The notes beneath the pieces are model-generated. The model saw only the letters and a program-made list of their open reading frames with translations. It searched no databases and was not told the origin of the DNA. A stretch of 48,296 nucleotides of DNA, from positions 1 through 48,296 of the IMG/VR virus record IMGVR_UViG_3300030708_000704. The stretch is one strand, 5' to 3'. Each line of letters starts with the position of its first letter. The first letter of the stretch is position 1. Below, in pieces: positions 1 to 41,755 of the stretch. The translations under genes and the position numbers were made by a program. The stretch is from a virus (taxonomy: Duplodnaviria > Caudoviricetes).

Positions 1-60
1 AAGTATGCTGCTAGTTCCCGCAATAACAAGAAGAAGCGTTATCGTGGGCAAGGCAAGTAA
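1..60 (+). CDS. 3' end of a small Lys/Arg-rich protein (partial)
   Basis: Frame 1 reads KYAASSRNNKKKRYRGQGK* with TAA at 58-60. It resembles the small basic hypothetical found upstream of gp25 in T4-like cyanophages (recalled, not searched). Confidence 0.7.
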   Translation, partial: KYAASSRNNKKKRYRGQGK

Positions 61-432
61 TTGTACTCTTTAACGCTGTACACCTATCTCGCTCCCAGTA
101 AAGTCTGTGAGGGGGTAGGTGTTTTTTCTTTAGTAGAGATTCCGAAGGACACTTGTATATTCACTCCTGCAAAGCAGCAGTATGTACTGTGGACTGATGT
201 TGATGAAAGTTTAAGACCACGATTAGAAACCCTGACTTATTGCGACGAGGATGGGTTTTGGATTGATAGTGACTTGGACAAACTAGGTCCACAGTATTAT
301 ATCAATCACTCACATAGTCCAAATGTCGCATATAATAAAGACACTGGTAAACTCTATGCTATTAAGGATATTCCTGCTGGTGTAGAACTCACTGATTATT
401 ATTTCCCAGGAGAAAGAGATTGGCATACCTAA
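61..432 (+). CDS. Stand-alone SET-domain protein (putative protein lysine methyltransferase)
   Basis: All three SET signature motifs appear in order: GVGVFSLVEIPK (GxG/SAM), YINHSHSPNV (NHSxxPN) and AIKDIPAGVELTDYY (ELxxxY). TTG start; no post-SET Cys cluster. Confidence 0.85.
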   Translation: MYSLTLYTYLAPSKVCEGVGVFSLVEIPKDTCIFTPAKQQYVLWTDVDESLRPRLETLTYCDEDGFWIDSDLDKLGPQYYINHSHSPNVAYNKDTGKLYAIKDIPAGVELTDYYFPGERDWHT

Positions 433-1049
433 ACCATAGTCTCCCTGATTGGTCTTGTTACATGCGTAATGAGTTCTTGTACAATCACAAGAAAGGTCAT
501 GGAGAAGTAACAAAATGCGATGTACATACTGTTGCTAGTATCGAGAAACGAGTGCCTTTGTTTGAGGCATTCCTAGAGAATGGTGTCAACTGGACCAGGA
601 GACCTCTCCATGCCTTCTGCTGGCGTCCTGATGCAGAGATAGAACCTCTGGAGACCATTATGTACTGGGACTGCTTCTCGCCCTATGTGGATGTACAGAG
701 GCGTCATCGTCTTGCAGGACTACAAGCAGAACTAATTCGTCCTGATAACAAGAAAGTCTTGGGTGAATACATGTTTACCCTAGATTGGTCATGGGAGAAC
801 AAGGGAGTTCCTGACTTAAACTTCTCTGAGACACCTGAGCATAAGTGTGCTCACTTGTTTAAGGTGGAGACAGGTAACTACTATGCCTATCCAAACAATC
901 GTATCATTTGGTATGATGATGCATGGGTGTTTGATAGGATTGACAAGAACCCAGGCTACGAGATCGATCTCACGGTATACTCAGTAGAGAACAAGCGTAA
1001 ACTGCAAACTTCTGATCATTACATGTATGAGGTTAAAAACCTAGAATGA
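420..1049 (+). CDS. Conserved hypothetical phage protein
   Basis: 209-aa ORF, TTG start preceded by GGAGAAAGAG. Has Trp/Cys/His motifs (WDCFS, EHKCAH, YPNNRIIW). No function recognised. Confidence 0.75.
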   Translation: MAYLNHSLPDWSCYMRNEFLYNHKKGHGEVTKCDVHTVASIEKRVPLFEAFLENGVNWTRRPLHAFCWRPDAEIEPLETIMYWDCFSPYVDVQRRHRLAGLQAELIRPDNKKVLGEYMFTLDWSWENKGVPDLNFSETPEHKCAHLFKVETGNYYAYPNNRIIWYDDAWVFDRIDKNPGYEIDLTVYSVENKRKLQTSDHYMYEVKNLE

Positions 1050-10000: not shown

Positions 10001-13000
10001 AACACTAGATGGTGTTATTCAAGAACCAAAAGTTTCCTATACTATTTCTGGTAATCAAATTACTTTTGCAGCACCTCCACTAGGAGCAGATGTTGTTGAG
10101 GGTCAAGATGTACCTGCACAGAAAGTTGTAATCAGAAATGTAGAATTTAAAGATAATGTATATAATGAGAAGCATTTCAGAAAAATCAGAAACTTCTATC
10201 AGAGAGAAGGAACCTGGATTGATGCTGCCAACCAAATTGATTTGAATACTGACTTTATGGTTGCTGAAACTATCGGTTGGTTTGAAAACAAGTATGGTTA
10301 TCAAATTACCGATGGCACTATTCCATGGACTGCAATTGAACAAAAGTTCACTGCAGATATGAGAAGATATTGTGATGCTCTACAACATGACTTGAGATTT
10401 GGTGGTAATATCAAATCTAAAGAATATGCAGACTTGTTTGCTACAAAGTATAGCAGACAGAACATTCAATTTAACGATGCTTTACAGTATCTTGTAAGAC
10501 TATCAAAACTAGCAACTAGAAATTGGGATTGGGTTGCTGTTGATGCATCTTATACCGCTGGTAGTAATGTCATTACAGTTCAAACTACAGATAGCATTCC
10601 ACTTGGTGCTTATGTAAGTTCTGGTGGTGCATTTCCATCCGATGCTGGTATTAGAGTAACAGAAATTATTAGTGATACTCAGGTAAGAGTTTCTGCTCAG
10701 GCATTAGCATCTAGTGCTACTCCACCTGCAGGTGCTGCTGGTCCTGGTATCACTTATCTGAATGGAACTCAATCTGGTTCACAAATACTACCAACAGCAA
10801 CTGGTGCTGTCACACCTCCAAACTCCTATAACATTCCACCTGGATCTACCTTAACCATTCCACCTATCTTTAGTGGTCTTAATCAGGTAACATTCTCCTT
10901 TAGTGGAATTAACAATGGAACATATTACGATGCATCAAATTTAATCGATAAAAACAAAGATTATATTGTCGATTATGTTACTGGATGGGCTGCTGTAAAT
11001 TACCCATCCTATACTGTCTTCCCTGGAAGTCTTAATCGCGTTTTAGACAGCATTGTTTTCCATCTTCGTTTCGGTGGTAATCAAAAACTAGTAGAGTATG
11101 CAGAAAGTATATTTGATACTGCAACATTCTTTGCTGCTGCTCAAGCAGAATTAATTCTGACTGATCTGTGTGTCAAGGCAATGCGTCAAACCTTGCCTGG
11201 AACAACACCTTTCACAAATCTTGTGCCATTTACAGATTCTGAAGTTATTACTGATGCTCAAACTCCACTATGTGCAGAAGTAGAATCTACGCTGAATACT
11301 TATTGGGAAATTGTAGAAGAAATTCTTGAAATTGGTCCTAATGTTATTGATCCTACTCAAGTAAATGCTCCAAAGAATGGTTACTATGCCACTAATCTAA
11401 GTGTCTACACCAACTATAATATTCTACCAGATCCAGAACTCGTCAATAGAGAATGTGAGGATGTAGTTTCTGCACTCACAACTTATGCTAGCATCATGCA
11501 AGATGCAATGCTTGACGGTTTAGAAGCAACTGCTACTCTACCAGACTTTATTGATGGTGAGACAAAAGACTTTGAATTATATTGGGACGATGATGGTTCT
11601 GCTGTGTCTCTAACTGAGACTGATGAGAATTTGTTAGTTGCTTTGAATGGTGTTATTCAAAGAACGAAACACACAATCGATGAACCAGCATTTGATGCAT
11701 ATTTCATTGATAAGTCGGTTGTACCAAATATCATTAGATTTAGTGCTCCTCCTATTTGGGATCAAGACCTCTCTGCGAGAACTATTGGAGAACCAACTCA
11801 GGTAGAGAAGTTCTTTGCAACTGGTGTTGGTAATCAAAAAAGATATACAATTGACGATGCTAATATTGATGGAGAAACAACTGGTCCACACCAGATTGTA
11901 AGTATTGCAGAAGATACTATTCTCAACATCGATGACGAGAGATTCTTGCTTGTTATTTTGAATGGCGTCATTCAAAAGAGGGGATTGTCTGATGGTGGTG
12001 CTTACGATATTATTGGTTCTACCATTAACTTTGCAACTCCAATTGTTGCAGAAGATGTTGTTGACATTCGTCTTTTCTATGGTAGAGATATTGAACCAAC
12101 CGTAACAATCCATAACTACGACATTAACGGATATCTCTATCCAAAAGAACTGACAGTAACTGGAACTAATGCTGGTTCTCTGTTTAATAACTTTGTTGTT
12201 ACTAGCGATTATGCGTTAACAACTTATGAAAACTTCTATTTCTATCAACAGGACTCAAATGGAGTTTATCCATTAGGTAAAGCATATGACTGGAGAATTG
12301 TAGGATCAAACACTTTAAAAGTTAAGTTATTTACCAATAACATTGACTTTGATGCTAACAGAGACTTATATGCAAGAACTTTAGGTGCATATGAGACTGT
12401 CGAATATTCATTCGGTCCAACTGTCACTGTCAGTATTGCATCTCTAGACAGTCAATTAGTAAAAACTGAAAGATCTTACTTCAATGGTGATGTAAGAAAA
12501 TCAAATGATCTACTACAAAGAAAAGGATTCTTTAGTCTAAATCCTGGCGACAAGATTAAAGTTGACGGTGAAGCAGACTACAGAACTATTAAGTCTTCTC
12601 CTGGAAAAGCAAATTCTAAAGATTTCAGAGTAGGTTCTGATGGTGCAAACTCTATCTACGGTTCTTTTGGAATTACAAGATATAATGGCACTACTTTTGG
12701 CGAAGGTCTTAGCATCCAAGCAGAAATTGAAAATGGTTCTGTTACAAAACTCATTTGGAATGAAAGACAAGTAAGAGAAGAAGTTCAAAATATTTCATCT
12801 CATACTATTACAGATGCATCTTATGATCCAGTAACAGGAGTTTTTGTAGGAACTATTCCAAATCATGGTTTTTCTGCACAGCAGTATGTAAGATTTAAGA
12901 ATAATTCTGTAGTGTTCACTTGTGCATTAGACAACGATGCTACTGAACATAGTTATCCCAGAGCAGGACAAGATCCATATGCAGATAAGTGGATTCTTAT

Positions 13001-15026
13001 TGACTCCGTAACTACAAATACATTTACAATTAATGTCGGAACATCTTCCGATACTAGTGCTCATACATTCGTTACATCTACTCCTGGTGGACTACTAAGA
13101 GGAACTGACATTTTCTATAGATTCTATAGACCCACAGCATTTAATTACTATATTCCACCAAATATCGAGTTCATTCCTAAGAACTCAAATGGTGGTGGTG
13201 CAAGAGCACGAGTTGTTACCGTCAAGGGTGAAATTATTGGTGTAGAATTGGTATCTGGTGGATCTGGATATACAGAAGCACCTATAGTTGTAGCAACACG
13301 CAAGTATAACATTATTAAGCAAGATGATATCAAGGTATCTCTTGTAAAACTTAATGTTCAGTCTGTTGTAAGTCAGTCACTCACAATTAGTTCTCAAATT
13401 AGTGCAATTGAACTACCACCACCAGAGCAAGCACTTATCTCTACTATTTCTCTGGTATCTCCTGCTAACTCCTCTGATATTCTTGAGATTGATATTACAC
13501 CAGAACCTCTTACTGGAGAGGAAGCTGGTGGATCGATCCCAGGTGGTCAGTCACAACCTGGCATGGGTAATATCGTATACATCGAACCAGATCCTATCCC
13601 AGATCCTGTTGTAATTGATGGAAGCGGAGGTATTTTAAGAATACAAGAAGCAGACAGAGAAGTTTCTAGAATTGTATCTGTAAGAGCAGAAGATATTGTA
13701 ACATTTAGTGCTCTACAGACTAGTAGAGTTGCAACAGCAATTGTACAAGTTGAGGTTGATAACTCTAGAATTACAACAACCAATTCTTCTACTGCTCCTG
13801 GTGGATATCTACAAGCACCTCTTTCTATTGGTGATGAGATTGTCTACATCAGCAATACTGGTAGATTCTCCAGTAATGGAAAACTACTTATCGGTAACGA
13901 AGTTGTTCGTTATCTCAGAAAAGGAGAGGATAGATTCCTCAGTGTCACAAGAGGTATTGACAACACAATTGAGCAAAACTGGAATGCAGGAACATTTATT
14001 CGTGAAATCGATGATTATGTAAGCGTTGCATTCGGTGGTGTTCAGTCCTTCGTCAGTGAAACCAGTGTTCTATCTGGTGTTACTGAAGGTAGATCTGAGA
14101 GACTATCGCAATATCAAGTTGATGGTGCTGTAGTTGCTTCTTCTTCTACCGTATCTCTACAGAAGACACAAGTTCTTCAACTTGAAAGAGATATCATTTC
14201 TATCTCTGATGTCAAATTTGACAGAAGAAGACAGACATCTTCTGAGAGTGCAGATGCGAACACAATCCAGTCTACAACTACTGTTGCTCTAAGTCAAGTA
14301 CAAGTAGAAACTTCTTCTGTAATTCTTGGCAGTGCATTGAGAGAACTGACATTCTTTGCACCTCCTGGTGGTGTTGTAGATTACTTCCAAGAGACAATCT
14401 TCTTTACTAATCCTATCACAACTAGATTGAATGGTGATGTCACTCTAGTAACTAGAAATGTTACTCAAAGAGATGGAACTGTCATTGAGATTAGGAATAT
14501 TCAAGAAGAAGAGCAAGCAGATTATATTGGAAATTACACTATTGGTAACCTAGGTGCAAACATTAATAGTTGGAATTATGTTTCTAAAGACGAAGGTACA
14601 ATCCCTTCCAGTGGAGTAAGTCTCGCAGAATTTGGAAGACTTTTTGCTAGTATAACTTTACGAGATTTTGAATTGAGAGGAGATTCTAACTATACTTTGG
14701 CAGGTGACAAGTTTAATCTTGGCATTCCAACCTTCAATAACCCAGTTGCAATTTATCGTCAAACGACAGATAATTTTGGAACACATGGATATCTAGATTT
14801 TGCTCCTATTCAAGGACCACTGACAATTGAGGTTTACAGTAATATTTCCTACTTCCCTAATACTGGTTATCTATTATTCGTGGGTCCTTCTAATACATAT
14901 TCCATCTGTCAGTATGGATCTAAAGATAATAATGCCAAGACATTTACCAATATCACATATGTGAGAGGTAATGCCGTAACACTCCCACCAGACACCACTA
15001 CTGTAATCCCATATTCAATTAACTAA
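4035..15026 (+). CDS. gp7: Giant baseplate wedge initiator (gp7-like), multidomain
   Basis: Lies between gp6 and gp8. Has QLPEFI...IKNIGQFYRSKGT...FLF and ITDSFFYQDYSYVVKS...HPAGFKLFG, plus a YHYH-like segment (HSPILGFAYDGNPIYGPFGY...LDENNGRYCVTPDFPEGTYAYF, about 6291-6630) and many beta-repeat modules. Confidence 0.85.
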   Translation: MAVTKRSISTLIETQLPEFINTEYELFGNFLTRYYESLEIQGGPLDIANNLDVYTNIDYYESNLLKQSTTLNGNHSASETTLVVDDATSFPEENGYIKIGSEICFYKTRTANSFVDVRRGVSGNTKLGDLYYSTEYSTSQASTHSGGELVQNISNLFLYALVKNFEEQYLASFPEKYLKNAVDKRTLIKNIGQFYRSKGTEQSIQFLFNTVVEGGVENRPTVYNPSDFTYKSSNSDWTQGYALRVKVLSGDVTSLVGKVITQEASDTYGFASATVDNVRFDSQVDDEDTYNLFLATETLNGTFEITTKTELTQQISSAAVPGDRVNVVSTLGWKNNGSLLIGGETFTFADKNVTQFTIETRTQATTHAVGTPVYDPIVIGNSDVTMLVFGLVYNLTPTNPQPNASVGDRIEVSNPGFETQDSRIVSSTGLRWRLSPTNARPTSPTNPTYTSGLSNLSTDVSAIFADDQFYYIASSGYPSYTILDNVTSIPGPLADQKILKLIRKESINTTEIYKTPTNDFGIFVNGVRAYGYKDTEEVNFGRLEEIKVLSQGVNYRNAPYVLINGVSGRAIAKLAGQFVESIEILEEGLYGKIPTVELTSGRGASVRATVTGGQVTDLQIDNGGEYYSTPPSVIIRDKAGQGRLAEWTAEVTNGVVTGFTQINGGAFYTQENVEVVIAPIGANAKAEAKITTWTKDRIKNLGSSLDDNNGYVFLNRNNALEYGYAHIANPKSLRVALNDNLDALGQEPATKTHSPILGFAYDGNPIYGPFGYTDPLDSSGSVSRMTSSYGLRTARQFGPTADQYALGTFVQDYEYRHKSGTLDENNGRYCVTPDFPEGTYAYFLTIEEDQTPVFPYIIGENFYSLPVDSNYNTNLNQTNISRNVQRLFTPGLPSNGGGFNGEVQDLESGSIDSVEVVESTSTFSVGSELLFDNSGTEGSDVEATVSSVNGQTVSRLDSFETKAVKLTITLPSYVFENDTLRQPGSGAYGTIVGTIRNDNTILVTDVHGKFNNSAAFATDIKVLRLTLDKPSSYAQGSVLSLTDGVVTVSATGEVLESVSEGNTVLVKVLSGTFQDQDTLDSFLKSDNLSDTSGSKIDDIDYLSDGLIPFDIDDNIALVTTSEDHNLGIGDIVNVSVNPDDNTKTVTYYVRKRIYQEVELRTPVYDTTVDYSGIGRLLIFNAGLLYPVGTYTNVEVTGGSGENATVTVVVSPLNSGDATGYVSSVQIQNGGTGYKRGDVLSIADADLNRVSGSSTQVVKFYVDHVGVSTVATTIDVVSAADYANNDLLLIDDEIVKIISIVNNQVGNDTLTVERAQEGTTAVDHYDGAPVSIYKPGYNLSSTYSVNGSETIIYDRDQQKLLVIYPSTQTLGALQPITTQTSFFDESTPRKFVTVVNATTPENRFEFKLDPSLSIFSTDAPNNFVSEWTVNPIIQVQEAYRYVFDTSDASLTGSHLDFSPSGNFNLISIEKKESTVAQGNAGSFVDMKFGFGSRFSTNTYTERQQSNFSNFFYFDRNGSISSNGSYLRIVRDPLAGRNTVNFVSPRSFSYSLSAEPQWDGSGTISYTTTGQFAVGSIDAVSVQNIGANYKKVPIVLGVYPNTKKTATATVDFDSTFKTITGVTVTNTGSDYVNPKVIILDGDGKNAEFKITSRDGKVLDIVVVSPGTGYTKAPTIAIVESSIKLFAQGSRVGLPKNIKIIKNGSSFHNDKTILPEYTGSYVLVVKGYTGNFLRGENVSQTVNGQEVFSAVVREWRDGSNLLKLSNIKGKLRNGVSLQSKISKQSVTFHRTFVTPFTIDLKPYADNTGRFTSDKGRIGNANQRITDSFFYQDYSYVVKSRSSIDSWRELVKETTHPAGFKLFGEVIIDPKIEAPNGIEMPEALPKADHFSIIELWDPQKNKITVESTKRTLTQTIISTEDYRSIRGSGSVDVNEFDLQTLRARELSLVQNANDPSPFDGTFNADGQLVGTKTFTLYNGGTPYSPYSTENVIVTLDGVIQEPKVSYTISGNQITFAAPPLGADVVEGQDVPAQKVVIRNVEFKDNVYNEKHFRKIRNFYQREGTWIDAANQIDLNTDFMVAETIGWFENKYGYQITDGTIPWTAIEQKFTADMRRYCDALQHDLRFGGNIKSKEYADLFATKYSRQNIQFNDALQYLVRLSKLATRNWDWVAVDASYTAGSNVITVQTTDSIPLGAYVSSGGAFPSDAGIRVTEIISDTQVRVSAQALASSATPPAGAAGPGITYLNGTQSGSQILPTATGAVTPPNSYNIPPGSTLTIPPIFSGLNQVTFSFSGINNGTYYDASNLIDKNKDYIVDYVTGWAAVNYPSYTVFPGSLNRVLDSIVFHLRFGGNQKLVEYAESIFDTATFFAAAQAELILTDLCVKAMRQTLPGTTPFTNLVPFTDSEVITDAQTPLCAEVESTLNTYWEIVEEILEIGPNVIDPTQVNAPKNGYYATNLSVYTNYNILPDPELVNRECEDVVSALTTYASIMQDAMLDGLEATATLPDFIDGETKDFELYWDDDGSAVSLTETDENLLVALNGVIQRTKHTIDEPAFDAYFIDKSVVPNIIRFSAPPIWDQDLSARTIGEPTQVEKFFATGVGNQKRYTIDDANIDGETTGPHQIVSIAEDTILNIDDERFLLVILNGVIQKRGLSDGGAYDIIGSTINFATPIVAEDVVDIRLFYGRDIEPTVTIHNYDINGYLYPKELTVTGTNAGSLFNNFVVTSDYALTTYENFYFYQQDSNGVYPLGKAYDWRIVGSNTLKVKLFTNNIDFDANRDLYARTLGAYETVEYSFGPTVTVSIASLDSQLVKTERSYFNGDVRKSNDLLQRKGFFSLNPGDKIKVDGEADYRTIKSSPGKANSKDFRVGSDGANSIYGSFGITRYNGTTFGEGLSIQAEIENGSVTKLIWNERQVREEVQNISSHTITDASYDPVTGVFVGTIPNHGFSAQQYVRFKNNSVVFTCALDNDATEHSYPRAGQDPYADKWILIDSVTTNTFTINVGTSSDTSAHTFVTSTPGGLLRGTDIFYRFYRPTAFNYYIPPNIEFIPKNSNGGGARARVVTVKGEIIGVELVSGGSGYTEAPIVVATRKYNIIKQDDIKVSLVKLNVQSVVSQSLTISSQISAIELPPPEQALISTISLVSPANSSDILEIDITPEPLTGEEAGGSIPGGQSQPGMGNIVYIEPDPIPDPVVIDGSGGILRIQEADREVSRIVSVRAEDIVTFSALQTSRVATAIVQVEVDNSRITTTNSSTAPGGYLQAPLSIGDEIVYISNTGRFSSNGKLLIGNEVVRYLRKGEDRFLSVTRGIDNTIEQNWNAGTFIREIDDYVSVAFGGVQSFVSETSVLSGVTEGRSERLSQYQVDGAVVASSSTVSLQKTQVLQLERDIISISDVKFDRRRQTSSESADANTIQSTTTVALSQVQVETSSVILGSALRELTFFAPPGGVVDYFQETIFFTNPITTRLNGDVTLVTRNVTQRDGTVIEIRNIQEEEQADYIGNYTIGNLGANINSWNYVSKDEGTIPSSGVSLAEFGRLFASITLRDFELRGDSNYTLAGDKFNLGIPTFNNPVAIYRQTTDNFGTHGYLDFAPIQGPLTIEVYSNISYFPNTGYLLFVGPSNTYSICQYGSKDNNAKTFTNITYVRGNAVTLPPDTTTVIPYSIN

Positions 15027-31057: not shown

Positions 31058-34000
31058 ATGAGTTTTCATATTAATTCCGACAAAGAGAAAATTAGGGGCG
31101 CAAACCCTAAACTCATCGGTGATAATGAAGTAACAATTAGGGTCGGTACGGGGTCTAATGAAAGAGAAATTCTTAGATCTCAACTAGATGGTGCTACCCA
31201 GTTACCTCGTGTTGGTATTAACAGAACTGGACAAAGAGTCAATAATATTAATATATTGACAGGCGGTTCTGGATATACATCCGCTCCAAATGTTGTCATT
31301 GATCCACCACCAGCTGGTGGTGTTCAGGCAACTGGTTCTGCTTTTATTTTCAATGGCAGAGTTGTTTCTATTGCTGTCAACAATCCTGGTAATGGATATT
31401 CAGTTGCTCCAACTGTAACAATCACTGATGGCGGTGGTCAAGGTGCATCTGCAGAAGCATTCCTTGATACTGTTGACTTTGAACTTGATATTAATGGTGC
31501 TATTAGAACTTCCACCTCTATCATTTCTGATACGGCGAGAATTCTAAACCTGGATATTGATAATTTTATCACACCAGACGCTAATTTTAGAGCACCCAAC
31601 TTAAAAACATTTGCTAACAACACAGGAACCCCATGGGCTGCTAGTGTTATTGTCCAAAAAGATGCTTACAGATACTTTGGTAATAATATTTACCAGGCAA
31701 TTAATGCTGGACAAACTGGACCTAATGGTCCAGAACACCTAGATGGCATTGAACTAAACGGAGAAGTTCAATTTAAGCATATTGGTTTCAGAGTAGTTGA
31801 CTCTAATAATTACAAATATAATGAAACTGGAGAGTCTGGCGTATTTCCAAGATCTATCACACCTCTACTAGGTGATAGATCCGATAAGATTGCTACTACT
31901 GAGTATGTTCTAAACCTAGCAACCAATGATGTTGGTGGCAGAATCTATGTTTCTTCTCAGATTGGTAGTGACCTAAACGATGGTCGTTCTGCTGTAAACC
32001 CTGTCCGTACCATTAAGAAAGCGGCACAGTTAGCATGGGCAACTCCTGGTGTTAAAGAAACTCTGATTGTTTCTGGTGGAGACTATGTAGAAGATAACCC
32101 AATCTCTCTACCACCTGATGCATCGGTTGTTGGTGATAACCTTCGTCTTGTAATCATCAGACCTGCTAATCCTAAGAAGCACATCTTTAAGTTTGGTGAT
32201 AAGAACTATGTAACTGGTGTTACATATAGAGACCAAATTGACTCCAATGGCGATCCCGTTGCTACATGGGACTTCGCAATGGTGTTCGATGATAAGCAAA
32301 GAATTCTCATCGACTATGAGGCAAACGGAGACTTTGGTGTTAACTTCCCAATTGGTCACCAAATTTTTGGTCCTGATGAATTCAATGTTGTATTCCAACA
32401 GAACACAGGTTTACAGCAGTTAGTAAGTGGTAGACTGGTAAAAGGTCTAAACACGGGTGCTAGAGCAAGAGTTCTTGGAGTTGAGTTTGATGCAACAACA
32501 GGTAATAGCGCATTTATTAATGGTAAAGCAGATGTAAGACTAATCAGTGGTTCTTTCTTACAAGGTGAGCAATTTGAATATCTAACAAGTGCTAGTACCA
32601 CGGGAACAACTTATTCTTCATTAACTTCAGCAACAACAACTTCTGGTGAAAACCAATTACTTTTCACTACCAATCCCACGAATGATTTCAATGCTGGTGC
32701 ATATGTTAGACTAACTGCTTCTTCCGCAACTGCTAGTGGACAAATTATCTCTGGTGACTATGAAGTTGTTAGCATTGGTGCTACCTCTCCATATGAAGTA
32801 ACATTTGCTCCTATTTTAGGAACAACTGGATGGAATTCCGATGGAGAAACGGTAACTATCACTCAGGGTGAAGAGATTACTGTTCAGGCAGAAACATTCG
32901 ACTCTTCAGAAATCAATTCTATTAGAGCAGAAGGAGAAGTTGTATCTGTTGATGAAGATGTTACAACAACTTTACCAATTTCCAGAATTGACTTCTCTCT
33001 ACAGGGAGATCCATCTATTGCAACTGGAGGTTTCCAGAGCGCACAGTTTGGCAACGCAGAAGATCTAGGTGGTATTGTTTTCTACACAAGTGCTCTTGTA
33101 GGTAGACAGAATACTCATGACTTTAAAGAAGGTCAAGAAATTTTAATTGAAGGTCTTCCAACTTCTGGTCCTGACCTATCTTATCTAAACGGCAAGCAAA
33201 GAATTTACAAAGTTCTAGAAGACGCTGATGGTCGTTCTAGAAGATTTGTTATTCCTAAGAAAGTACCTGGAACAAATGACGCTAATTTCCAACCAGGATC
33301 TACTGCTGTTGTTAAGTCTTTCACAAGGTCAGTAACACTTTCTCTACTTAACTCACCAAACACCTTCCCAATTGCTACTGCTGTAGACAGAAGATTTCAG
33401 GATGCTTGCACATTCTTACGCAACAACAGAGAGTTTATTGCGGATGAAGTAGTCGGAAGAATTAATGACGAATTTAAGACAGATTACTATTCTGTTTACA
33501 ACATTGGTGGTCAAGCAACCGCGCAGTATACTCCTACTAATGTAACATACGATCCTGCTACTGGTGATGCAGTATTTACTGTTAACAATCATGGATTGTC
33601 GGTAGGTGATGGTGTAAGAATTGCAGATCAGTCTATCGTATTTACATGTACGATGGATGGTAACAAAACTGAGCACGCTCTTCCTGATACAGATCAGTAT
33701 GCTAGCGGCAAGTCTTTACCAATTACAGCAGCAACTACAAATACATTTACTTTGAATGTAGGTGCTTCTGGTCCCGATCAAGTATTTACTCCTTCTGGTG
33801 CTGATTATAATCCTGCTACAGGAGCTTTAGAACTAACAATTGGTGCTCACACTCTATCTGTTGGCGAAGGAATTATAATTGCTGATAATTCATTGTCCTT
33901 CACTTGCACGATGGACAATAATCAGTCTGTCAAGCAATATCCTCGTCCTGGTATTGATCCTTATGCAGGTAGGTCTATGCCTATTACTGCAGTCAGTGCA

Positions 34001-37000
34001 ACCACAATTACAGTCAATGCAGGAATCTCTGGTCCCAACAAACAGTTTACTCCAACCAATGCTACATATGACCCTGTAACAGGTGATATGACTGTCACTG
34101 TTGGGCAGCATGGTTTAGGTGTTGGACGCGGTGTTACTCTTGCGGACAATTCATTCACATTTACTTGTGCTTTAGATAACAACCAGACTACACACACATA
34201 TCCTCGTCCTGGTGTTGACCCATATAATGGTCAACAATCTATCGCAATTACTGCTGTTGGAAGCACACAGCACACAGCAACAGATGCTCCATACGATGCA
34301 GCAACTGGTATTGTAACCTTAACTGTTGCAAACCATGGATTCAGCAATGGCGATTATGTCAAGATTGCCGATGGTTCTTTGACATATACTTGCGACCTAG
34401 ATGGCAATGTTGCACAAAAATCATATCCACGCGCTGGATATGATTATCCAAGTGGTCGCTGGTTGGAAATTAGTAATGTAACTACAAATACCTTTGATAT
34501 CAATGTAGGACCTTCCTCTTACACTGGTACTCATACATTTGTAAGTGCTGCTGCAAATGGTATTGATCGTCAAGATGGTACATTTACCATTAATGTTGGT
34601 ACTTCTTCGGATACATCCGCTCACACATTTGTAAGTGCTACCGCAAATGCTATTTCTCATTCTCCACAGTCTACACATACTTTTGTAGGAGCAACTGGTG
34701 GTGCGGTACAACATCTACCTCAGTCTGCACATACATTTGTAAGATCTGACGCAAATTCCCTATCCGTTGGTGGTTCTAGTTTTGACATTTATCTAGGACC
34801 ACTAGATCATGCAAACACTTATGTTAGTGGCGGTACAGTAAAATATGATGGAACAACTGTTAATGTTACTAACTTTGTTTATGATACAGCAGTTACTGGT
34901 GTTGCAACTGTAACTACAGATGTTGCACTTCCTGGTTTAGCAGAAGACAATACTGTACAACTTGCAGACTTGTTAATTTCCTGTGATTCTGGACAGAAGA
35001 AATATCCTGCATACAGTTCTCCAACTGTAACAAATACTGGTACAAATGGAGACGAACAATGCCGTCAAGATGTTACTCACTTTATTAATGCAGTAATTAG
35101 AGACCTTGAATTTGGTTCAAACTACAATGTCATTGATGCTGCTAAAAAGTATATTGTTGATGGAAAAATTGCATATGTAGAAGATGAAATTATTCAAATC
35201 ACTCGTGCAATTGAATATGCTAGAGAAATTTGTACTTATGCTATCAGAAACTGGAGGACAGGATTAGGAACTCCTGGAGAACCAATTTATGCTCCACAAT
35301 ATTCTAGTATTACCAGATACTTTGATGACACAGTAATTACATCTACTGCTGGATCTCCAGCATGTGCTAATGTTGTTGCTGCTTTGGATACTTTAGCATT
35401 CTTGTGGATTGATGTTCTCACAAACAATGCTTCAGGAACATATCTTGATGCAGCATATCTAATTGCAAGAAACGCAGATTTGATTGCTGATCAGGCATAT
35501 CTCAATACTAAAACTCAGTATCCTTCTCTCGGTCTCGATGATATTAATGAGAGAAAGTGCCGTAGAGACATTAAGTATATCCTCGAAGGTTTAATTAGAG
35601 ACTTGGTTCTTGGTGGAAACCATGGCATTGTTTCTAATGCAGAATTCTACTTCACTGGAACTGCTTTAACTGGAATTCCAGAGGCACAAAGAGACGAAAC
35701 CATTTATGCATATCAGCAAGTAAAAGATCTTGCTATTCAAGCAATGCGTAACTGGACTGATGGTACTGCAATTGATGTAACTCCATCTGGAGCAACTTAC
35801 AATGCATCCAGTGGTCAAGTAACTGTAACTTTCCCTGATCCATCAACTCCATTAACAACATCTGATAGAATTGCATTTACAGAAGATGCACTAACATTTA
35901 GTTGCAACACTGGCAGTGGAGCACAAAATCATGCAAGTCCAAATAGATTTGACTCTAACTTCGGACAGAGTTATGCAATTACTAATGTAGTTTCTTCTGG
36001 CGGTAACACAACTGTTACATGTACTGTTCCAGACGCAGGATCTGCATCTGGTGTGGCACATACATTTGTAAGTGCTAAGACTGATGGAACTATTTTAATC
36101 TATGATCCAGTAACACTTACATCTCCAATTCCTAAGTTTGAAGATTGGAATATTCTTCTCTATAGTCCAACTCCACTCTGTGCTAATGTAGCGTCTTCCA
36201 TCACAACTTCGATGGATCTTCTAGAGGATATTCTAGATGGAACAATTCTCCCTGGTGCTACCACACAGACATATGGAACCCTTTATGATACAAATACTAT
36301 CAGACAGGAAGCAGACAGTGTAATTACTGACTTCAATAATGTCAAGGTAACTGTTCGTGCGGACTATGATGATTATCCAATCATTGAAGCATCTCCATAT
36401 ACCCAGAACGCATCTGTTATCTCCTTCCTAGGTGGTGGCGGTGCGGAAATTGATGGTAATAAGGTTAAGCAACCCAACTGTCCTTTCCCTGGTCTAGAAC
36501 TAGACGGAACAGCATCGTTCCCGAACCAAGGTAAGTCGATGGTTGCTGCGGCATTCACTATCGTTTCCTTTGGTGGTACAGGTTATAAGGTTATCAACGA
36601 TGGATATACTCAGTTGGTTTCTGTCTTTGTTATCTTCTGTCAAGATGGTGTTCTTTGTGAATCTGGTGGTTACGCATCTATCACCAACTCTGCTACAAAC
36701 TTCGGTACATATGCACTAAGAGGAACTGGTTTCCGTAAGGACGCATATACATTTGATGCTGGTACTGGAGATCCTGTTGCGGGAACTTATACCAGAGCAA
36801 CTGTTTCTCAGGTAACTTCTACTCCAACTGGTAGAACAAAACTAAGAATTACCAATCTAGGTAGAGAACCACTAGAGCACTATATCATCAAGTTTGACGA
36901 TTTTGAAAATACAAATCCTGACATTGAATACTTCATCGATGCTATTGAAGAAGTAACAGTTGGTCCTCCTTTCAGTGCTCTACTAACCCTAGATGATGGC

Positions 37001-40000
37001 ACTGGATCACCAATGGACTTGACTGATAAGTCTACTGGTCAAGCAGTTGCAACTAGCGTTCTTCTAGGAGAAGAAATTGCACTACACAGACCATCTATTG
37101 TTAACTCTTCTTCCCACACTTGGGAATTTGCAGGATCTGGTAACGACTACAACTCTCTACCAGAAAACGGTGGTGTTAAGATTGAGGCAAACGAGCAAGT
37201 TTCCGAAAACTATGGTCGTGTATATGTCTCTGGTACTGACGAACTAGGCGACTTCAAGGTTGGTACATTCGCTAGAATTGAGAACAGAACTGGTAATATT
37301 ACCTTCACGGGTACGGTTACCATCTCTGAAGTTGAATTCTTGAAACTGAAAGGTGGCGATGTTGTTGTTACTGGTTTCGATAACTCTAACACACTTGGTG
37401 GTGCTAACGCAACTGACTCTAAACTACCTACTCAAAAGGCAGTTAGAGATTATATCACCAACAACCTTGGACCATACATCAACAAACCATACTCTACGAA
37501 CGCTGTTCCTAGAGCACTGGTTGAACTAACTGACTCTGGTAAGATTTCGGTCGATCAGATTCCAGCACTAAGACCATTCAGTGTCTTCACTGTTGCTGAT
37601 GAAAATGAAAGATTAGCATTAGAAGGAGCACTTGCTGGTGATATTGCTATTCAACAGGGACTCGCCCCACTTGGATTTACTTCTAGCAACATTAACACAA
37701 CTACAGATCAGATTACAATCTTAAATCATGGTCTTACTACTTCTAAGTTAATTACTTATAAGCAAGGAAATGGAGCAACAGCACCAACACCTCTCAACGA
37801 TTCACAAGATTACTATGCAATTGTTGTTGATTCTAATACTATCAAGTTAGCAGCATCTGTTGTTGACGCAAATGCAAATACTGCAATTGATATTACCAAT
37901 GCTGGTTCTGGAAGTCATACTTTAGAACCAGAAGGATCTACACAGACATTTATTCTTAACAATGATGTAGATAGTCTATTCCTTGGATTTGCGGTAGATC
38001 CAAATCTATCGTTTACTATCGGTGATGTATTCGCTGGTAGTATCACAACAGGTCGTATTCAAGCAACTGAATATAGAACAGGCGTCGTTTATCAAATCAA
38101 TCTCACTGATGGAGGTAGTGGATATACTTCCGCACCAACAGTAACTATTACAGGTGGTAATCCTGGTGCTGGTTATGTAGAAGCAAAAGCAACTTGTACT
38201 ATTGCTAATGGAGAGGTTGTTACTGTCACAATCATTGACTTTAACGGATTCAAAGGTGGTAAAGGATACACCACACAACCATCTGTTCAATTCTCTGCTC
38301 CTCCTGGATCGGGAACTACCGCACAAGGTAATGCTTTACTTGAGAGCAGACTATATGGTGATATTGTAAACAATATCAAGATTGAAGATACTGATACTAT
38401 TGATGACAGCAATGCTGCTCCTAACACAAATACTGTTAACCTCACGAGAGTTGTTAACACTTCATCATTTGACGCTGCCAACTGGGTATCTCTATCCTCT
38501 AACCAGATTGCAGCGTCTGATATTACATCAGGTGTTATCGAAACCGACAGACTTGCCCTTGGCGGATCTGCAAACTCCTTCACATTCTTGAGAGGAGACT
38601 CTAACTTTGCTCTTGCAGTACAGTCACTTAAAGGTGCTGAAACAAGATACTTCGCTAAACTCAATAGTCAGGCAGCACAAGGCGCAAGTCAATTTGTATT
38701 CCAATCAAATTCTGATGCTCTAATTGGTCATGAAGTTGTTGCTAGTGTAACAGGAATTCAGGCAAATACAAATATCACTGGTGTTCTTACTGTTGGTGGT
38801 TTAACTACGGTTTCTTTCAACAACCCACTAACTGCCACAATTCCAATTGGAACAATCATTGAGTTTGAGCGTGGAGCATCTCCTCTATCGTTTGAATCTA
38901 CTTACACACAAGGCAACTTTGTTGATGAAGTTATCATCGCAAATGCTGGTACTGGATTTACTAACGGTCAATATTTTGATGTTGCTCTACTAGGTGGTGC
39001 AGGAACAGGACTAAAGGCAAACATTGTTGTTTCTGGAAACGCAGTTACAGAAATTACTGTTACTGATGGTGGTACTGGATACAATACAGACTTTACTGTA
39101 TCATCTGCTCCTGCGGCAATTGGTTCTGGATCTAACTTAGTTCTCGAAGCAAAGATCTCTACTGTTAATAGACAGTACGCGAATGTCTCTATGGATGTTC
39201 AGCGTGTAACTGATCTAACAATTTCTGCTGATCTATTTGGAACAGTTGGTGTTGCGAGATTTAGAAAATCACAATTCAATGTTGGACAGGAAGGAAATGG
39301 TTCTGTCACACTCAAAACTGGTCCTGATAGCGGACTCGATGCTGACTTACTAGATGGTCAGCAGGGTGCTTACTATACCAGTGCTACTAACCTATTCAGT
39401 GGAACTGTTCCATCTGATAGATTGGCAGGTAGTTACAACATTAGTATTTCTGGTTCTTCTACTAACACAATCAGACTTGCTTCTGGTACTAACAACCCAA
39501 CTTCAAACCCAACTCCAGATACATTTGTTACTGGTGTTGTTTCTAACACGGTATTCAATACCGCTATTGGTCTCAATGATGGTGGAACCAAAACTATGGT
39601 TCTCACCTTCAGACCTGCAGGAAGTGGATTTACATTCGACGGTGGTGTCAAGCAGTTGGCATTTACCGACAATGATAACATGTATCTCCGTGGTTCGGGT
39701 AGTGGAGTTCTAACATTTGGATCATGGGCAAAAGTTTGGACATCTCTAAATGATGGTGTTGGTTCTGGATTAGACGCAGATAGATTTGATAACAGACAAG
39801 GACTCTGGTATCAAAATGCACTGAACATTAACTACGGAACTTTATCTGCTACCAGACTACCTGGATATCTAGAAGAAACTGCAATTAGAGATACTATTAC
39901 ACTGAAGTCCTTCAACGGAGATCCAAAATATAGAGTATATGTTTCTGGTCTTGTTCTTGATACATCGCCAACTGGAACATTTGCTCCTAGTAATGCAGTC

Positions 40001-41755
40001 AAACTATATGATGTTAATGACCAGGCAGTTGGTGATTTCACAATCGATAATGAAATCACTAATGATGATACCAATGATAACTTCAATGACTACACTATTC
40101 TAATTGGTAGACTAACATCTGGTAACTTTAACACAGCAGTAAGAATTGGTACGGCAACAATTAATGTTCCTTTCCAAGACTTCACGATTGAAGATAGCAA
40201 TACGATTGATGTTGCTAATTTGAATAGCAATGGCGCGAACGCAGAATTGACACTTGGAAGAGGAGACAATGTTGCATCTACTCCTGCTATCTTCTTCAAA
40301 TCTTCTGCACTTTCTGCAACAAATTATAATGTTGCCATGTTTGCATCTGGTGGTGATGCAACTGATGGTTCTGGTACTTTAGAGGTTACTGTTGCAAACT
40401 TTGATGGTGTTACTATCAACGGCAGTAAGATTTGGAACGCTGGTAATATTACATTCCAGACCACAAGCATTGGAAATACTGCGGTTCTCCGTGATGCATC
40501 TGGCAATTTCTCTGCTGGAACAATCACTGCTGACTTAACTGGTGCTGCATCGCTTAATGTCCTGAAGTCAGGCGATACCATGACTGGTTCGCTAAACCTA
40601 ACAGGAACTGGTTCAAATCTAACCGTTGCTGGTATTGGTAACTTCAACCAGTCCTTGAATGTAGTCGATGATCTAACAGTTGATTCTGCTAACAGTCTAT
40701 TCAAGGTAGACACAACGAACCTAAGAGTTGGTATCAAGAATACTTCCCCAGTATCTACATTCCATGTAGACGGTGACGGTAAAGTAACATTAGAGGGAAC
40801 CAATCCAGAAATTCAATTCTGGAGATCTTCTGATGATGAAAATATTATTCACCTAGAATATGATGTTGCTGCATCTACATTCTATACATGGGCAAGAAAC
40901 AAAGACATCAACTTCTCCACAACTGATACAGGTGGAAAGACAGAGAATCATCTACACATCAATGCTAGTGATGGTAAAGTTGGTATTCGCACGCAGTCTG
41001 CAAATGTTAGTGCATTAGGTCAAGTTCCAGATTTACAGGTTGCAGGATTGTTCCATGCTACTGGATCTCTTGTTACTGGTCCTGTTGCTAATAATGTAAA
41101 TGCTCCTGCTTCAGTTACATTCCTTGGTGGTGCAACTGGTGGATCTGGTGGTAGAAACTTTAGAATTGGTGCTGGTCTAGCAGAGGGACCTGGAATTTTT
41201 GAAATTACTCCTTCTTATAGCAATGGTTCTTCTAACTGGAAGAATGCTCTAGTTTCTCCACCACCTGAAGCACCTGCACTTGTTATCAGAGGTACAGATA
41301 ATGCTGTTGCAATCAACACCAGTGATTTTGGTGGAACAGATACAACAGTAACACCAAATGTCAACAGAACATATGCACTGAATCTACAAGGCGATTTCAA
41401 CATCAATGGTCTTGTATTCCAGAACAATGCTGAGTTCGTTACTTCCAGATGGACTGAATCTCCTAACCAGACTGATATTTACAGAGATACTAAAGTTGGT
41501 ATCAACTTCCAGACTGATAGAGATCCAGCATATGAACTAGAAGTCGAAGGTGGAATTGGAATGACGGGTCTGTTGTATGTCAACAATGACCCACTGTGGT
41601 TGGATACATATGGCATCATCAAAGTCAACAGACAGTTGCTCGATGAGGATGTTACTATCCCAGCAAACACCAACGCATCTAGTGCTGGTCCACTGGAGAT
41701 AAATACGAATAGGACAATCACAATTACTGCAGGATCTACCTGGACAATTTCTTAA
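31058..41755 (+). CDS. Giant tail fibre-like protein with beta-helix, helical repeats and nested beta modules
   Basis: KIATTEYV; beta-helix cap GRIYVS..GSDLNDG..PVRTIKKA; two GLDADxxD fibre motifs (about 39330 and 39765); (R/K)VGI fibre repeats; C-terminal SAGPLEI...GSTWTIS. Confidence 0.82.
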   Translation: MSFHINSDKEKIRGANPKLIGDNEVTIRVGTGSNEREILRSQLDGATQLPRVGINRTGQRVNNINILTGGSGYTSAPNVVIDPPPAGGVQATGSAFIFNGRVVSIAVNNPGNGYSVAPTVTITDGGGQGASAEAFLDTVDFELDINGAIRTSTSIISDTARILNLDIDNFITPDANFRAPNLKTFANNTGTPWAASVIVQKDAYRYFGNNIYQAINAGQTGPNGPEHLDGIELNGEVQFKHIGFRVVDSNNYKYNETGESGVFPRSITPLLGDRSDKIATTEYVLNLATNDVGGRIYVSSQIGSDLNDGRSAVNPVRTIKKAAQLAWATPGVKETLIVSGGDYVEDNPISLPPDASVVGDNLRLVIIRPANPKKHIFKFGDKNYVTGVTYRDQIDSNGDPVATWDFAMVFDDKQRILIDYEANGDFGVNFPIGHQIFGPDEFNVVFQQNTGLQQLVSGRLVKGLNTGARARVLGVEFDATTGNSAFINGKADVRLISGSFLQGEQFEYLTSASTTGTTYSSLTSATTTSGENQLLFTTNPTNDFNAGAYVRLTASSATASGQIISGDYEVVSIGATSPYEVTFAPILGTTGWNSDGETVTITQGEEITVQAETFDSSEINSIRAEGEVVSVDEDVTTTLPISRIDFSLQGDPSIATGGFQSAQFGNAEDLGGIVFYTSALVGRQNTHDFKEGQEILIEGLPTSGPDLSYLNGKQRIYKVLEDADGRSRRFVIPKKVPGTNDANFQPGSTAVVKSFTRSVTLSLLNSPNTFPIATAVDRRFQDACTFLRNNREFIADEVVGRINDEFKTDYYSVYNIGGQATAQYTPTNVTYDPATGDAVFTVNNHGLSVGDGVRIADQSIVFTCTMDGNKTEHALPDTDQYASGKSLPITAATTNTFTLNVGASGPDQVFTPSGADYNPATGALELTIGAHTLSVGEGIIIADNSLSFTCTMDNNQSVKQYPRPGIDPYAGRSMPITAVSATTITVNAGISGPNKQFTPTNATYDPVTGDMTVTVGQHGLGVGRGVTLADNSFTFTCALDNNQTTHTYPRPGVDPYNGQQSIAITAVGSTQHTATDAPYDAATGIVTLTVANHGFSNGDYVKIADGSLTYTCDLDGNVAQKSYPRAGYDYPSGRWLEISNVTTNTFDINVGPSSYTGTHTFVSAAANGIDRQDGTFTINVGTSSDTSAHTFVSATANAISHSPQSTHTFVGATGGAVQHLPQSAHTFVRSDANSLSVGGSSFDIYLGPLDHANTYVSGGTVKYDGTTVNVTNFVYDTAVTGVATVTTDVALPGLAEDNTVQLADLLISCDSGQKKYPAYSSPTVTNTGTNGDEQCRQDVTHFINAVIRDLEFGSNYNVIDAAKKYIVDGKIAYVEDEIIQITRAIEYAREICTYAIRNWRTGLGTPGEPIYAPQYSSITRYFDDTVITSTAGSPACANVVAALDTLAFLWIDVLTNNASGTYLDAAYLIARNADLIADQAYLNTKTQYPSLGLDDINERKCRRDIKYILEGLIRDLVLGGNHGIVSNAEFYFTGTALTGIPEAQRDETIYAYQQVKDLAIQAMRNWTDGTAIDVTPSGATYNASSGQVTVTFPDPSTPLTTSDRIAFTEDALTFSCNTGSGAQNHASPNRFDSNFGQSYAITNVVSSGGNTTVTCTVPDAGSASGVAHTFVSAKTDGTILIYDPVTLTSPIPKFEDWNILLYSPTPLCANVASSITTSMDLLEDILDGTILPGATTQTYGTLYDTNTIRQEADSVITDFNNVKVTVRADYDDYPIIEASPYTQNASVISFLGGGGAEIDGNKVKQPNCPFPGLELDGTASFPNQGKSMVAAAFTIVSFGGTGYKVINDGYTQLVSVFVIFCQDGVLCESGGYASITNSATNFGTYALRGTGFRKDAYTFDAGTGDPVAGTYTRATVSQVTSTPTGRTKLRITNLGREPLEHYIIKFDDFENTNPDIEYFIDAIEEVTVGPPFSALLTLDDGTGSPMDLTDKSTGQAVATSVLLGEEIALHRPSIVNSSSHTWEFAGSGNDYNSLPENGGVKIEANEQVSENYGRVYVSGTDELGDFKVGTFARIENRTGNITFTGTVTISEVEFLKLKGGDVVVTGFDNSNTLGGANATDSKLPTQKAVRDYITNNLGPYINKPYSTNAVPRALVELTDSGKISVDQIPALRPFSVFTVADENERLALEGALAGDIAIQQGLAPLGFTSSNINTTTDQITILNHGLTTSKLITYKQGNGATAPTPLNDSQDYYAIVVDSNTIKLAASVVDANANTAIDITNAGSGSHTLEPEGSTQTFILNNDVDSLFLGFAVDPNLSFTIGDVFAGSITTGRIQATEYRTGVVYQINLTDGGSGYTSAPTVTITGGNPGAGYVEAKATCTIANGEVVTVTIIDFNGFKGGKGYTTQPSVQFSAPPGSGTTAQGNALLESRLYGDIVNNIKIEDTDTIDDSNAAPNTNTVNLTRVVNTSSFDAANWVSLSSNQIAASDITSGVIETDRLALGGSANSFTFLRGDSNFALAVQSLKGAETRYFAKLNSQAAQGASQFVFQSNSDALIGHEVVASVTGIQANTNITGVLTVGGLTTVSFNNPLTATIPIGTIIEFERGASPLSFESTYTQGNFVDEVIIANAGTGFTNGQYFDVALLGGAGTGLKANIVVSGNAVTEITVTDGGTGYNTDFTVSSAPAAIGSGSNLVLEAKISTVNRQYANVSMDVQRVTDLTISADLFGTVGVARFRKSQFNVGQEGNGSVTLKTGPDSGLDADLLDGQQGAYYTSATNLFSGTVPSDRLAGSYNISISGSSTNTIRLASGTNNPTSNPTPDTFVTGVVSNTVFNTAIGLNDGGTKTMVLTFRPAGSGFTFDGGVKQLAFTDNDNMYLRGSGSGVLTFGSWAKVWTSLNDGVGSGLDADRFDNRQGLWYQNALNINYGTLSATRLPGYLEETAIRDTITLKSFNGDPKYRVYVSGLVLDTSPTGTFAPSNAVKLYDVNDQAVGDFTIDNEITNDDTNDNFNDYTILIGRLTSGNFNTAVRIGTATINVPFQDFTIEDSNTIDVANLNSNGANAELTLGRGDNVASTPAIFFKSSALSATNYNVAMFASGGDATDGSGTLEVTVANFDGVTINGSKIWNAGNITFQTTSIGNTAVLRDASGNFSAGTITADLTGAASLNVLKSGDTMTGSLNLTGTGSNLTVAGIGNFNQSLNVVDDLTVDSANSLFKVDTTNLRVGIKNTSPVSTFHVDGDGKVTLEGTNPEIQFWRSSDDENIIHLEYDVAASTFYTWARNKDINFSTTDTGGKTENHLHINASDGKVGIRTQSANVSALGQVPDLQVAGLFHATGSLVTGPVANNVNAPASVTFLGGATGGSGGRNFRIGAGLAEGPGIFEITPSYSNGSSNWKNALVSPPPEAPALVIRGTDNAVAINTSDFGGTDTTVTPNVNRTYALNLQGDFNINGLVFQNNAEFVTSRWTESPNQTDIYRDTKVGINFQTDRDPAYELEVEGGIGMTGLLYVNNDPLWLDTYGIIKVNRQLLDEDVTIPANTNASSAGPLEINTNRTITITAGSTWTIS

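Follow-up and report, generated by a model that had tools for sequence, protein, structure and literature searches.

The closest described counterpart of the architecture reported here is the Si3 insertion of cyanobacterial RpoC2, which forms an elongated appendage. Its sandwich-barrel hybrid motifs SBHM-2 to -5 include elements from distant parts of the chain (PMC10895346). A 2026 survey of 2.7 million domains presents Si3 as its extreme case, a six-level recursive insertion with bifurcating nodes; it also lists ends lying together as a requirement for an inserted domain and names the folding order as open (PMC13114784). Here we report a probable case of this known but rare architecture, elaborated in a phage tail-fibre-type protein. 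The protein is encoded in a 48,296-nucleotide (nt) stretch of a virus (Duplodnaviria; Caudoviricetes), positions 1 to 48,296 of the IMG/VR record IMGVR_UViG_3300030708_000704, which we call the window:

31058 to 41755, plus strand: tail-fibre-type structural protein, 3565 amino acids (aa), PHROG 5342, orthologue of S-PM2p088 and Sf-CH1b_92

Residues 817–1237 of this protein appear to hold four units of about 100 residues in bracket order, predicted to fold as barrels nested loop in loop and to form an optional side arm that is likely an accessory host-surface adhesin. We give this reading as a whole a probability of roughly 0.85; the nested architecture itself is highly probable. The PHROG 5342 / T4-GC 830 proteins of cyanomyoviruses (S-PM2p088, ACG-2014j gp88, Sf-CH1b_92) are full-length orthologues that share the gene position, but S-PM2p088 is without the nest, and the records are labelled merely 'tail fiber' or 'structural protein'. 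In open-access full text from PMC and bioRxiv, we found no account of a phage structural protein with self-nested domains.

Like Si3, the nest is made up of small beta-domains that are homologous to one another but do not follow in tandem; several are assembled from distant chain segments. It also has at least three levels of nesting, here five predicted barrels in a helical host (model ranges 5..599, 37..543, 49..467 and 136..450, where the model number is the residue number minus 771). Bifurcating hosts with two inserts are a further likeness, although here they occur in relatives (loci L018, L034, L022 and L062) and not in this nest. Unlike Si3, the nest belongs to a virion protein, its block is optional and mobile, and its relatives have 1 to 18 units per cluster, use four insertion loops and include circular permutants. 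Membership in the Si3/RpoC2 family was rejected, because the host matches PHROG 5342 at full length in a tail module and is not an RNA polymerase beta' trigger loop. No sandwich-barrel hybrid motif was among the fold matches listed, the best of which were endosialidase, FCCH and reductase barrels.

Single barrels of similar fold are known, and we compared them with an intact copy of the unit elsewhere in the window, in a 3663-aa baseplate protein (ORF 4035–15026) that we take to be gp7:

12798 to 13106, plus strand: intact reference barrel in the gp7-like baseplate protein (motifs, alignment; model confidence 97.3)

FCCH of E1 (PF16190; 4P22, 2V31) and the FAD-binding barrels of reductases, which we take to be RIFT-type barrels, appear to share the barrel topology; their functions are unrelated, and we know of no self-nesting among them. 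FCCH aligned to the gp7 unit with Z 7.3 (2.5 Å, 75 residues) and to split barrel 1 of the nest with Z 8.4; the reductase barrels followed, and a chain of phage FCWL1 reached 7.5. Endosialidase- and FCCH-like barrels headed the searches with both the unit and the nest model, with Z up to 8.5 for the latter. Against PF16190, the nest scored 15.9 bits (cut-off 29.5; best member E 5e-4) and the gp7 unit was unmatched. The best structural match to the unit was the phi92 endosialidase barrel (4HIZ; PF12195; also K1F), with Z 7.7 and 2.0 Å over 74 residues, a barrel that is also present in a phage adsorption protein. At 18% identity, the cyanophage unit differs from it in being about 20 residues longer, in having an invariant Cys and His and in inserting into itself, whereas the endosialidase barrel is single; matches to PF12195 were weak, with E ≤ 1 for 17 of the 138 units tested and a lowest value of 0.0015. 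In K1F, the barrel is described as one of three polysialic-acid binding sites (bioRxiv 10.1101/2025.10.06.680778).

Motif order in the nest

A sequence-only reading of the window had reported, at 33524..34774, four openers of the gp7 unit, the first three without their HTFV strand, followed by stacked closers. All motifs were found where it had placed them. The opener motifs (YDP/YNP/YDA) lie at 33548, 33806, 34067 and 34292; HTFV occurs at 34532, 34622, 34676 and 34730, the last three spaced by 54 nt, and the start of GTFTINVG is at 34577. In the intact gp7 copy, we located YDPVTG at 12822, FTCALD at 12915, YPR at 12954, FTINVG at 13023 and HTFV at 13062. We built position profiles for six unit motifs (A, YDPxTG; B, HG; C, FTC; D, YPR; F, TFTxNVG; G, HTFV), which gave 0–3 matches per motif at a score of at least 12 among 240,889 shuffled residues. 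Read by these profiles, the nest is ABCF ABCDF ABCD ABCDFG FG G G. This string fitted a nested grammar with 0 edits and a tandem grammar with 8, and none of 60 shuffles was equally good, in agreement with the proposed bracket pattern.

Each opener was then joined to its last-in-first-out closer. The spliced units were 102, 103, 103 and 102 aa long (103 aa in the gp7 copy) and aligned to the gp7 unit nearly without gaps, with identities of 48/99, 40/101, 53/101 and 50/102 for units 1 to 4. The third of these includes 34577–34633, which had been proposed to complete copy 3; barrel 3 is two strands short, and its return piece provides exactly two. The order in the ORF is 1(2(3(4)3)2)1, with the following parts:

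33506 to 34768, plus strand: four-barrel cassette, 421 aa, residues 817–1237, present or absent as a block in orthologues (orthologue gaps)
33524 to 33775, plus strand: predicted barrel 1, outward part, residues 823–906, Cys864 (profiles, alignment, model range 49..467)
33782 to 34036, plus strand: predicted barrel 2, outward part, residues 909–993, Cys950, in the loop preceding the last strand of barrel 1 (model range 136..450)
34043 to 34264, plus strand: predicted barrel 3, outward part, residues 996–1069, Cys1037, in the equivalent loop of barrel 2 (profiles, alignment, complex model)
34268 to 34573, plus strand: predicted barrel 4, uninterrupted and innermost, residues 1071–1172, Cys1112 and His1159, in the barrel 3 hairpin before TFTINVG (profiles, model, alignment)
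34574 to 34660, plus strand: predicted barrel 3 return piece, residues 1173–1201, DGTFTINVG...HTFV, His1189 (model residues 405–408 and 428 contact 226–295)
34661 to 34714, plus strand: predicted barrel 2 return strand, residues 1202–1219, His1207 (alignment; model range ends at 450)
34715 to 34768, plus strand: predicted barrel 1 return strand, residues 1220–1237, His1225 (model residues 457, 458 and 464 contact 90 and 53)

At the DNA level, exact matches shared by the gp7 unit and the nest did not exceed 18 nt, and an identical closer peptide was encoded with 47 of 67 nt in common; thus, there was no sign of recent gene conversion between them.

Motif order in homologues

To extend the reading to relatives, we collected 228 loci, which contained 229 distinct motif clusters. 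After 26 clusters cut by locus ends were dropped, the remaining 203 were reduced to 132 non-redundant ones; the sample is biased toward the four-unit block of the query. The expected balance of openers and closers was observed: counts were equal in 106 of the 132 clusters and differed by at most one in 129 (r 0.98), and relatives read by hand had 7/7 (L034), 8/8 (L062) and 11/11 (L022). Equal counts were rejected as a stand-alone test of nesting, because tandem arrays yield equality too. Since counts cannot separate the two arrangements, motif order was tested by edit distance to each grammar in the 99 clusters with at least two units (47 distinct strings, 1055 tokens). Total edits were 87 for the nested grammar, 61 when two circular permutants were added and 399 for the tandem grammar, and 598 and 429 for shuffled tokens. 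The nested grammar fitted 52 of the 99 clusters exactly and 80 with at most one edit; the tandem grammar fitted none exactly and two with at most one edit.

Four insertion loops are used among the relatives (B|C, C|D, before F, and F|G), and circularly permuted units starting at the last strand were found (L077). Three loci with 11 to 18 units (L214:3-9557, L194:3-7586 and L176:186-10301) parsed as branched trees at 0–2 edits.

Shortened repeats arranged in tandem, with a separate domain of HTFV repeats after them, would account for the recurrence of the last three HTFV motifs every 54 nt, with 28–29 of 54 nt identical. We consider this arrangement extremely improbable, given the absence of any exact tandem fit; moreover, HTFV contributes a strand to the intact barrel, each closer lies in a different barrel in the models described below, and barrel 3 misses exactly the extra strand that its closer provides. 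An independent HTFV domain, which the sequence-only reading had itself named as the outcome that would speak against nesting, was not what we found.

Predicted structure of the nest

We modelled the intact gp7 unit with AlphaFold2 (138 sequences). The model had a predicted local distance difference test score (pLDDT) of 97.3, and HTFV forms one of its strands. Residues 772–1381 of the fibre protein (45 sequences) gave a pLDDT of 86.3 and a predicted template modelling score of 0.70; the return strands scored 84–95, and the strand pattern was the same as in the intact unit. By structural alignment (VIA), 4p22_B matched model range 49..467 (Z 8.4, 2.5 Å, 77 aligned), 4wqm_A matched 136..450 (Z 6.3, 3.4 Å, 78 aligned; many further rows) and 8vjh_D matched 37..543 (Z 6.7, 3.1 Å, 73 aligned; ranges 37..535–552). 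Because single solved barrels of about 80 residues span these split ranges, the predicted brackets are seen in the model. Foldseek searches of the 610-residue model against the PDB returned only elongated beta-protein noise (TM ≤ 0.11 by query), and near the top of the BFVD matches there were cyanophage relatives only.

We also supplied openers 1–3 and the distal strands to ESMFold2 as separate chains. The complex scored 0.70, the best control 0.00; a mark of this type is reached by 116 of 157 solved pairs and 2 of 215 mismatched pairs, a calibration that applies only roughly because our own alignment was supplied. The runs shared at least 97% of contacts, and the partner pLDDT was at least 88. 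The best-resolved contacts joined the first return piece (405–408, 428) to barrel 3 (226–295) and the last (457, 458, 464) to barrel 1 (90, 53). The model supports, and does not show, binding of the distal strands to the opener barrels. The proposal that each domain is inserted into a loop of the previous one was therefore in line with the grammar, the spliced lengths, the complex contacts and the model ranges: as it had anticipated for a structure prediction of this region, the first closer packs on copy 3 and the last on copy 1, and range 136..450 ties in copy 2.

The predicted path of the chain suggests how the nest would close. The chain would run out through barrels 1–3, each one strand short (barrel 3 two); barrel 4 would be completed first, and the returning chain would supply the missing strands in the order 3, 2, 1. 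In each barrel, the invariant Cys of the outward part and the invariant His of the return strand would meet only on closure, and folding would run inside-out. The two-stranded stalk imagined earlier was not supported in that form: the models point to a chain of closed barrels, each with about 75–85 residues outward and an 18–29-residue return, so that the chain crosses twice between one barrel and the next.

Fibres of phage tails commonly form trimers, and in the complex model the two halves of the nest dock even when supplied separately, so the return strands might complete the barrels of a neighbouring chain. Such strand swapping in an oligomeric fibre would leave the bracket order real and make the closure intermolecular. 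It is quite improbable: the single-chain model closes all barrels at high confidence, and the family contains intact single units alongside empty sites, a combination most easily understood if every chain completes its own barrels.

Order of closure

Returning to closure within one chain, we asked which closer belongs to which opener. Unit types were position-specific, and leave-one-out assignment was correct for 140 of 144 openers and 127 of 144 closers. In 37 clusters, the types agreed in 120 of 175 pairs under last-in-first-out pairing, in 34 under first-in-first-out and in 46 at random. The rearranged nests are the informative ones: closer type tracked opener type last-in-first-out in L018 (6/7), L034 (6/7) and L022 (8/11), and in the three-unit nests L061 and L209 the type-1 opener and the type-1 closer were both missing. 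In intact units, the last strand and tail covary with the N-terminal motifs, Cys–His included (a covariation score was trained on 265 units).

Several results weigh against nesting or this order of closure. Opener and closer counts were unequal in 26 of the 132 clusters. We checked 19 strings from unbalanced clusters by eye; 16 were explained by missed divergent closers, spurious tokens or an in-frame stop (L009), two (L171 and L207) could not be assigned, and one, L160, seems to be a genuine orphan opener. The type test is circular for canonical nests; of 58 clusters, 21 were skipped, and neither L176 (3/11) nor the two-unit nests passed. In 41 nests, the covariation score favoured last-in-first-out 20, 16, 10 or 2 times according to the choice of couplings, with about 7 expected by chance, and is weak and inconsistent. 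All structure is predicted and monomeric, and the AlphaFold2 nest model and the complex model share one alignment. The complex consists of two halves of one chain that resemble solved barrels, so its pass may partly reflect this likeness. The fold Z scores of 7–8.5 are middling by the tool's calibration, and no real relative of the nest turned up when solved sequences were searched by profile.

Two of the unbalanced loci deserve a separate description. In L160, residues 1223–1270 (frame from 3) contain opener motifs A, B and C and then unrelated sequence, possibly a recombination or assembly junction. In L009, the in-frame stop (4804–4808) lies within unit 3 of an otherwise normal nest and is either an assembly error or a broken allele.

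Hosts of the nest

The four barrels are themselves predicted to be enclosed. The model places the nest in the hairpin turn of a fifth, circularly permuted barrel (barrel 0), with one strand at residues 808–817 and the remainder at 1239–1316, and places this barrel inside a phycobiliprotein-like helical domain. These hosts, and a further single copy at 35771–36112, go beyond the sequence-only reading.

33479 to 33508, plus strand: predicted barrel 0, first strand (model strand 39–46; ranges 37..535 to 37..552)
34772 to 35005, plus strand: predicted barrel 0, remainder, with FDIYLG, the last-strand motif and then the usual N-terminal motifs with Cys (alignment, model ranges)
33380 to 33475, plus strand: phycobiliprotein-like helical host, first helix (8imk_G Z 6.7, range 5..599; 4xxi_A, 5aqd_M)
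35048 to 35260, plus strand: phycobiliprotein-like helical host, continuation, CRQD motif, end approximate (model, structural alignment)
35771 to 36112, plus strand: single diverged intact barrel copy after a second helical domain, HTFV at 36059, missing in some orthologues
31928 to 32290, plus strand: N-terminal part of a likely beta-helix domain that resumes at about 36380, probable outermost host (motif spacing; DUF1565)

The split helical host aligned to phycobiliproteins over model range 5..599 with Z 6.0–6.7 (8imk_G, 3.4 Å, 78 aligned). The second helical domain (35432–35770) matched phycoerythrin alpha at E 0.006 and PF00502 at 14.7 bits (cut-off 22.2). Both helical domains (33380–35260 and 35432–35770) have a C-R-x-D motif where the bilin-binding cysteine sits in phycobiliproteins.

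The motifs flanking the likely beta-helix insertion are 127 aa apart in three unsplit homologues and about 1476 in close kin, with a range of 127 to 2102 across relatives. This difference in spacing suggests one further host, probably a beta-helix; its identity rests on weak matches (DUF1565, 19.8 bits against a cut-off of 20.3). About 1,350 residues (32290–36380) appear to be one compound insertion in this probable domain. In all, six domains are predicted to lie one within another, and the likely beta-helix host would make seven.

The nest as an optional cassette

Among 11 named orthologues (S-B43 was excluded because its gene is truncated at 2,517 nt), the site was filled in three (Sf-CH1b, Sf-FR1 and ACG-2014j US23) and empty in seven; the S-PM2 orthologue is without the host barrel too. 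The alignment gap was exactly 421 residues: 816–1237 in S-CAM4, ACG-2014j US103 and S-RSM4, and 815–1236 in S-H9-1. The hairpin turn of barrel 0 is closed by a few residues in L078, L213 and S-RIM32. In 21 orthologues, three sites were filled or empty independently, giving seven combinations: the nest site held 0 or 4 units, the second 0 or 1, and the third 0, 4 or 8. Thus, the block behaves as a cassette that is optional and can occupy more than one site, and since cultured relatives are without it, the arm is not essential. When the two cassette junctions were aligned, neither a clear direct repeat nor a duplication of the target was apparent.

Two ACG-2014j isolates (L235 and L236) differ by the entire cassette and are about 55–90% identical along the rest of the gene, which suggests gene exchange. 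The S-PM2 orthologue is reported to mutate in a coevolution experiment (PMC9910659); because this orthologue has no nest, those mutations are uninformative about it.

Growth by insertion at the tip, as proposed earlier, does not describe this site, where occupancy is all or none (0 or 4 units); elsewhere, length changes at the base (three-unit nests from which unit 1 is missing together with its closer), through side branches (L018, L034, L022) and, read by eye, at the tip (L062). The ends of a unit appear to lie together, its first residues covarying with its last, and several loops tolerate inserts; consequently, a single recombination event could add, remove, relocate or branch a bracket-complete stretch, and half-brackets, which leave an open barrel, would be purged.

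Serine-rich giant proteins with a different sequence background (L035–L040, L126, L143 and L146) carry 2–4 four-unit blocks, adjacent or spaced. The presence of the block in these proteins indicates that the cassette has spread beyond the PHROG 5342 fibre family.

Possible function of the arm

Function is the weakest step of our reading. The analogy with the endosialidase barrel weakly suggests that the arm may add weak multivalent binding to surface glycans. We tentatively favour such an accessory adhesion arm over a passive module or a metal-binding role, with a confidence that falls somewhat short of even.

The nested barrels could also be a passive structural or near-neutral accessory without a ligand (a spacer, a shield or a hitch-hiking module), which would change the function alone. 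This is a realistic, if not the expected, explanation. It agrees with the absence of the block from seven of the 11 named phages, including one of two ACG-2014j isolates, with its presence at another site in some, and with the unrelated roles of the fold in E1, reductases and tail tubes. However, the four-unit block is intact at about 55–88% identity across diverse proteins, with up to four per locus; this conservation, together with the position-specific unit types, argues for selection on more than bulk.

A third explanation is that each barrel contains a Cys/His metal or redox site, so that the arm binds a trace metal or is metal-locked after closure. Cys43, a Pro and His90 were invariant in all 138 intact units, all four His and three of the four Cys were invariant in 45 nests, and the Cys and His covary. 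Nevertheless, a third or fourth invariant ligand was not found (a nearby H alternates with K), and the covariation indicates proximity only; we consider a metal or redox site unlikely.

Beyond this locus, we propose, as a conjecture with slightly less than an even chance, that the virion appendages of marine T4-like cyanophages are built by a recursive grammar. Four loops of one Cys/His barrel would each accept a further copy of it, native or circularly permuted, and blocks with complete brackets would move between sites as cassettes. The resulting branched arms would be deeper than the published six-level case, would tune host recognition by architecture rather than point mutation and would fold inside-out. 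The cassette combines a depth comparable to that of Si3 with a self-contained 421-residue block that has natural 0-, 1-, 2-, 3-, 4- and 7-unit versions and empty sites. It could serve as a natural test case for folding order, tolerance to unfolding force and the origin of nested chains, and protein designers could use it as a natural scaffold for branched or doubly linked constructs. For abundant ocean viruses, some of whose largest proteins are unexplained, the nest provides a domain map of such proteins and accounts for part of their length variation.

Genomic context

In the window lies the module for tail and baseplate of a marine cyanophage of the T4-like type, with gp25-, gp6-, gp7- and gp8-like, neck and sheath-stabiliser families. 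The fibre ORF matched the PHROG 5342 'tail fiber protein' profile at E = 0 over residues 1–3564, and its gene position is conserved, in synteny with Synechococcus phage Sf-CH1b. This phage was the closest named record, with 96.8% identity across 33371–35170 and identical gene order. A Pfam search named no family for the 3565-aa protein or for the gp7 unit. Besides its single barrel, the gp7-like protein (4035–15026) has a YHYH domain (PF14240, residues 662–848).

Compared with Sf-CH1b, the fibre protein has a 92-residue insertion at 37658–37933 (residues ~2201–2292), and the rest is mostly 95–100% identical. No Pfam family fitted the insertion; its NHGL...YYAIVVD...IKLA pattern resembles another small barrel, and it is possibly a very recent domain gain or loss.

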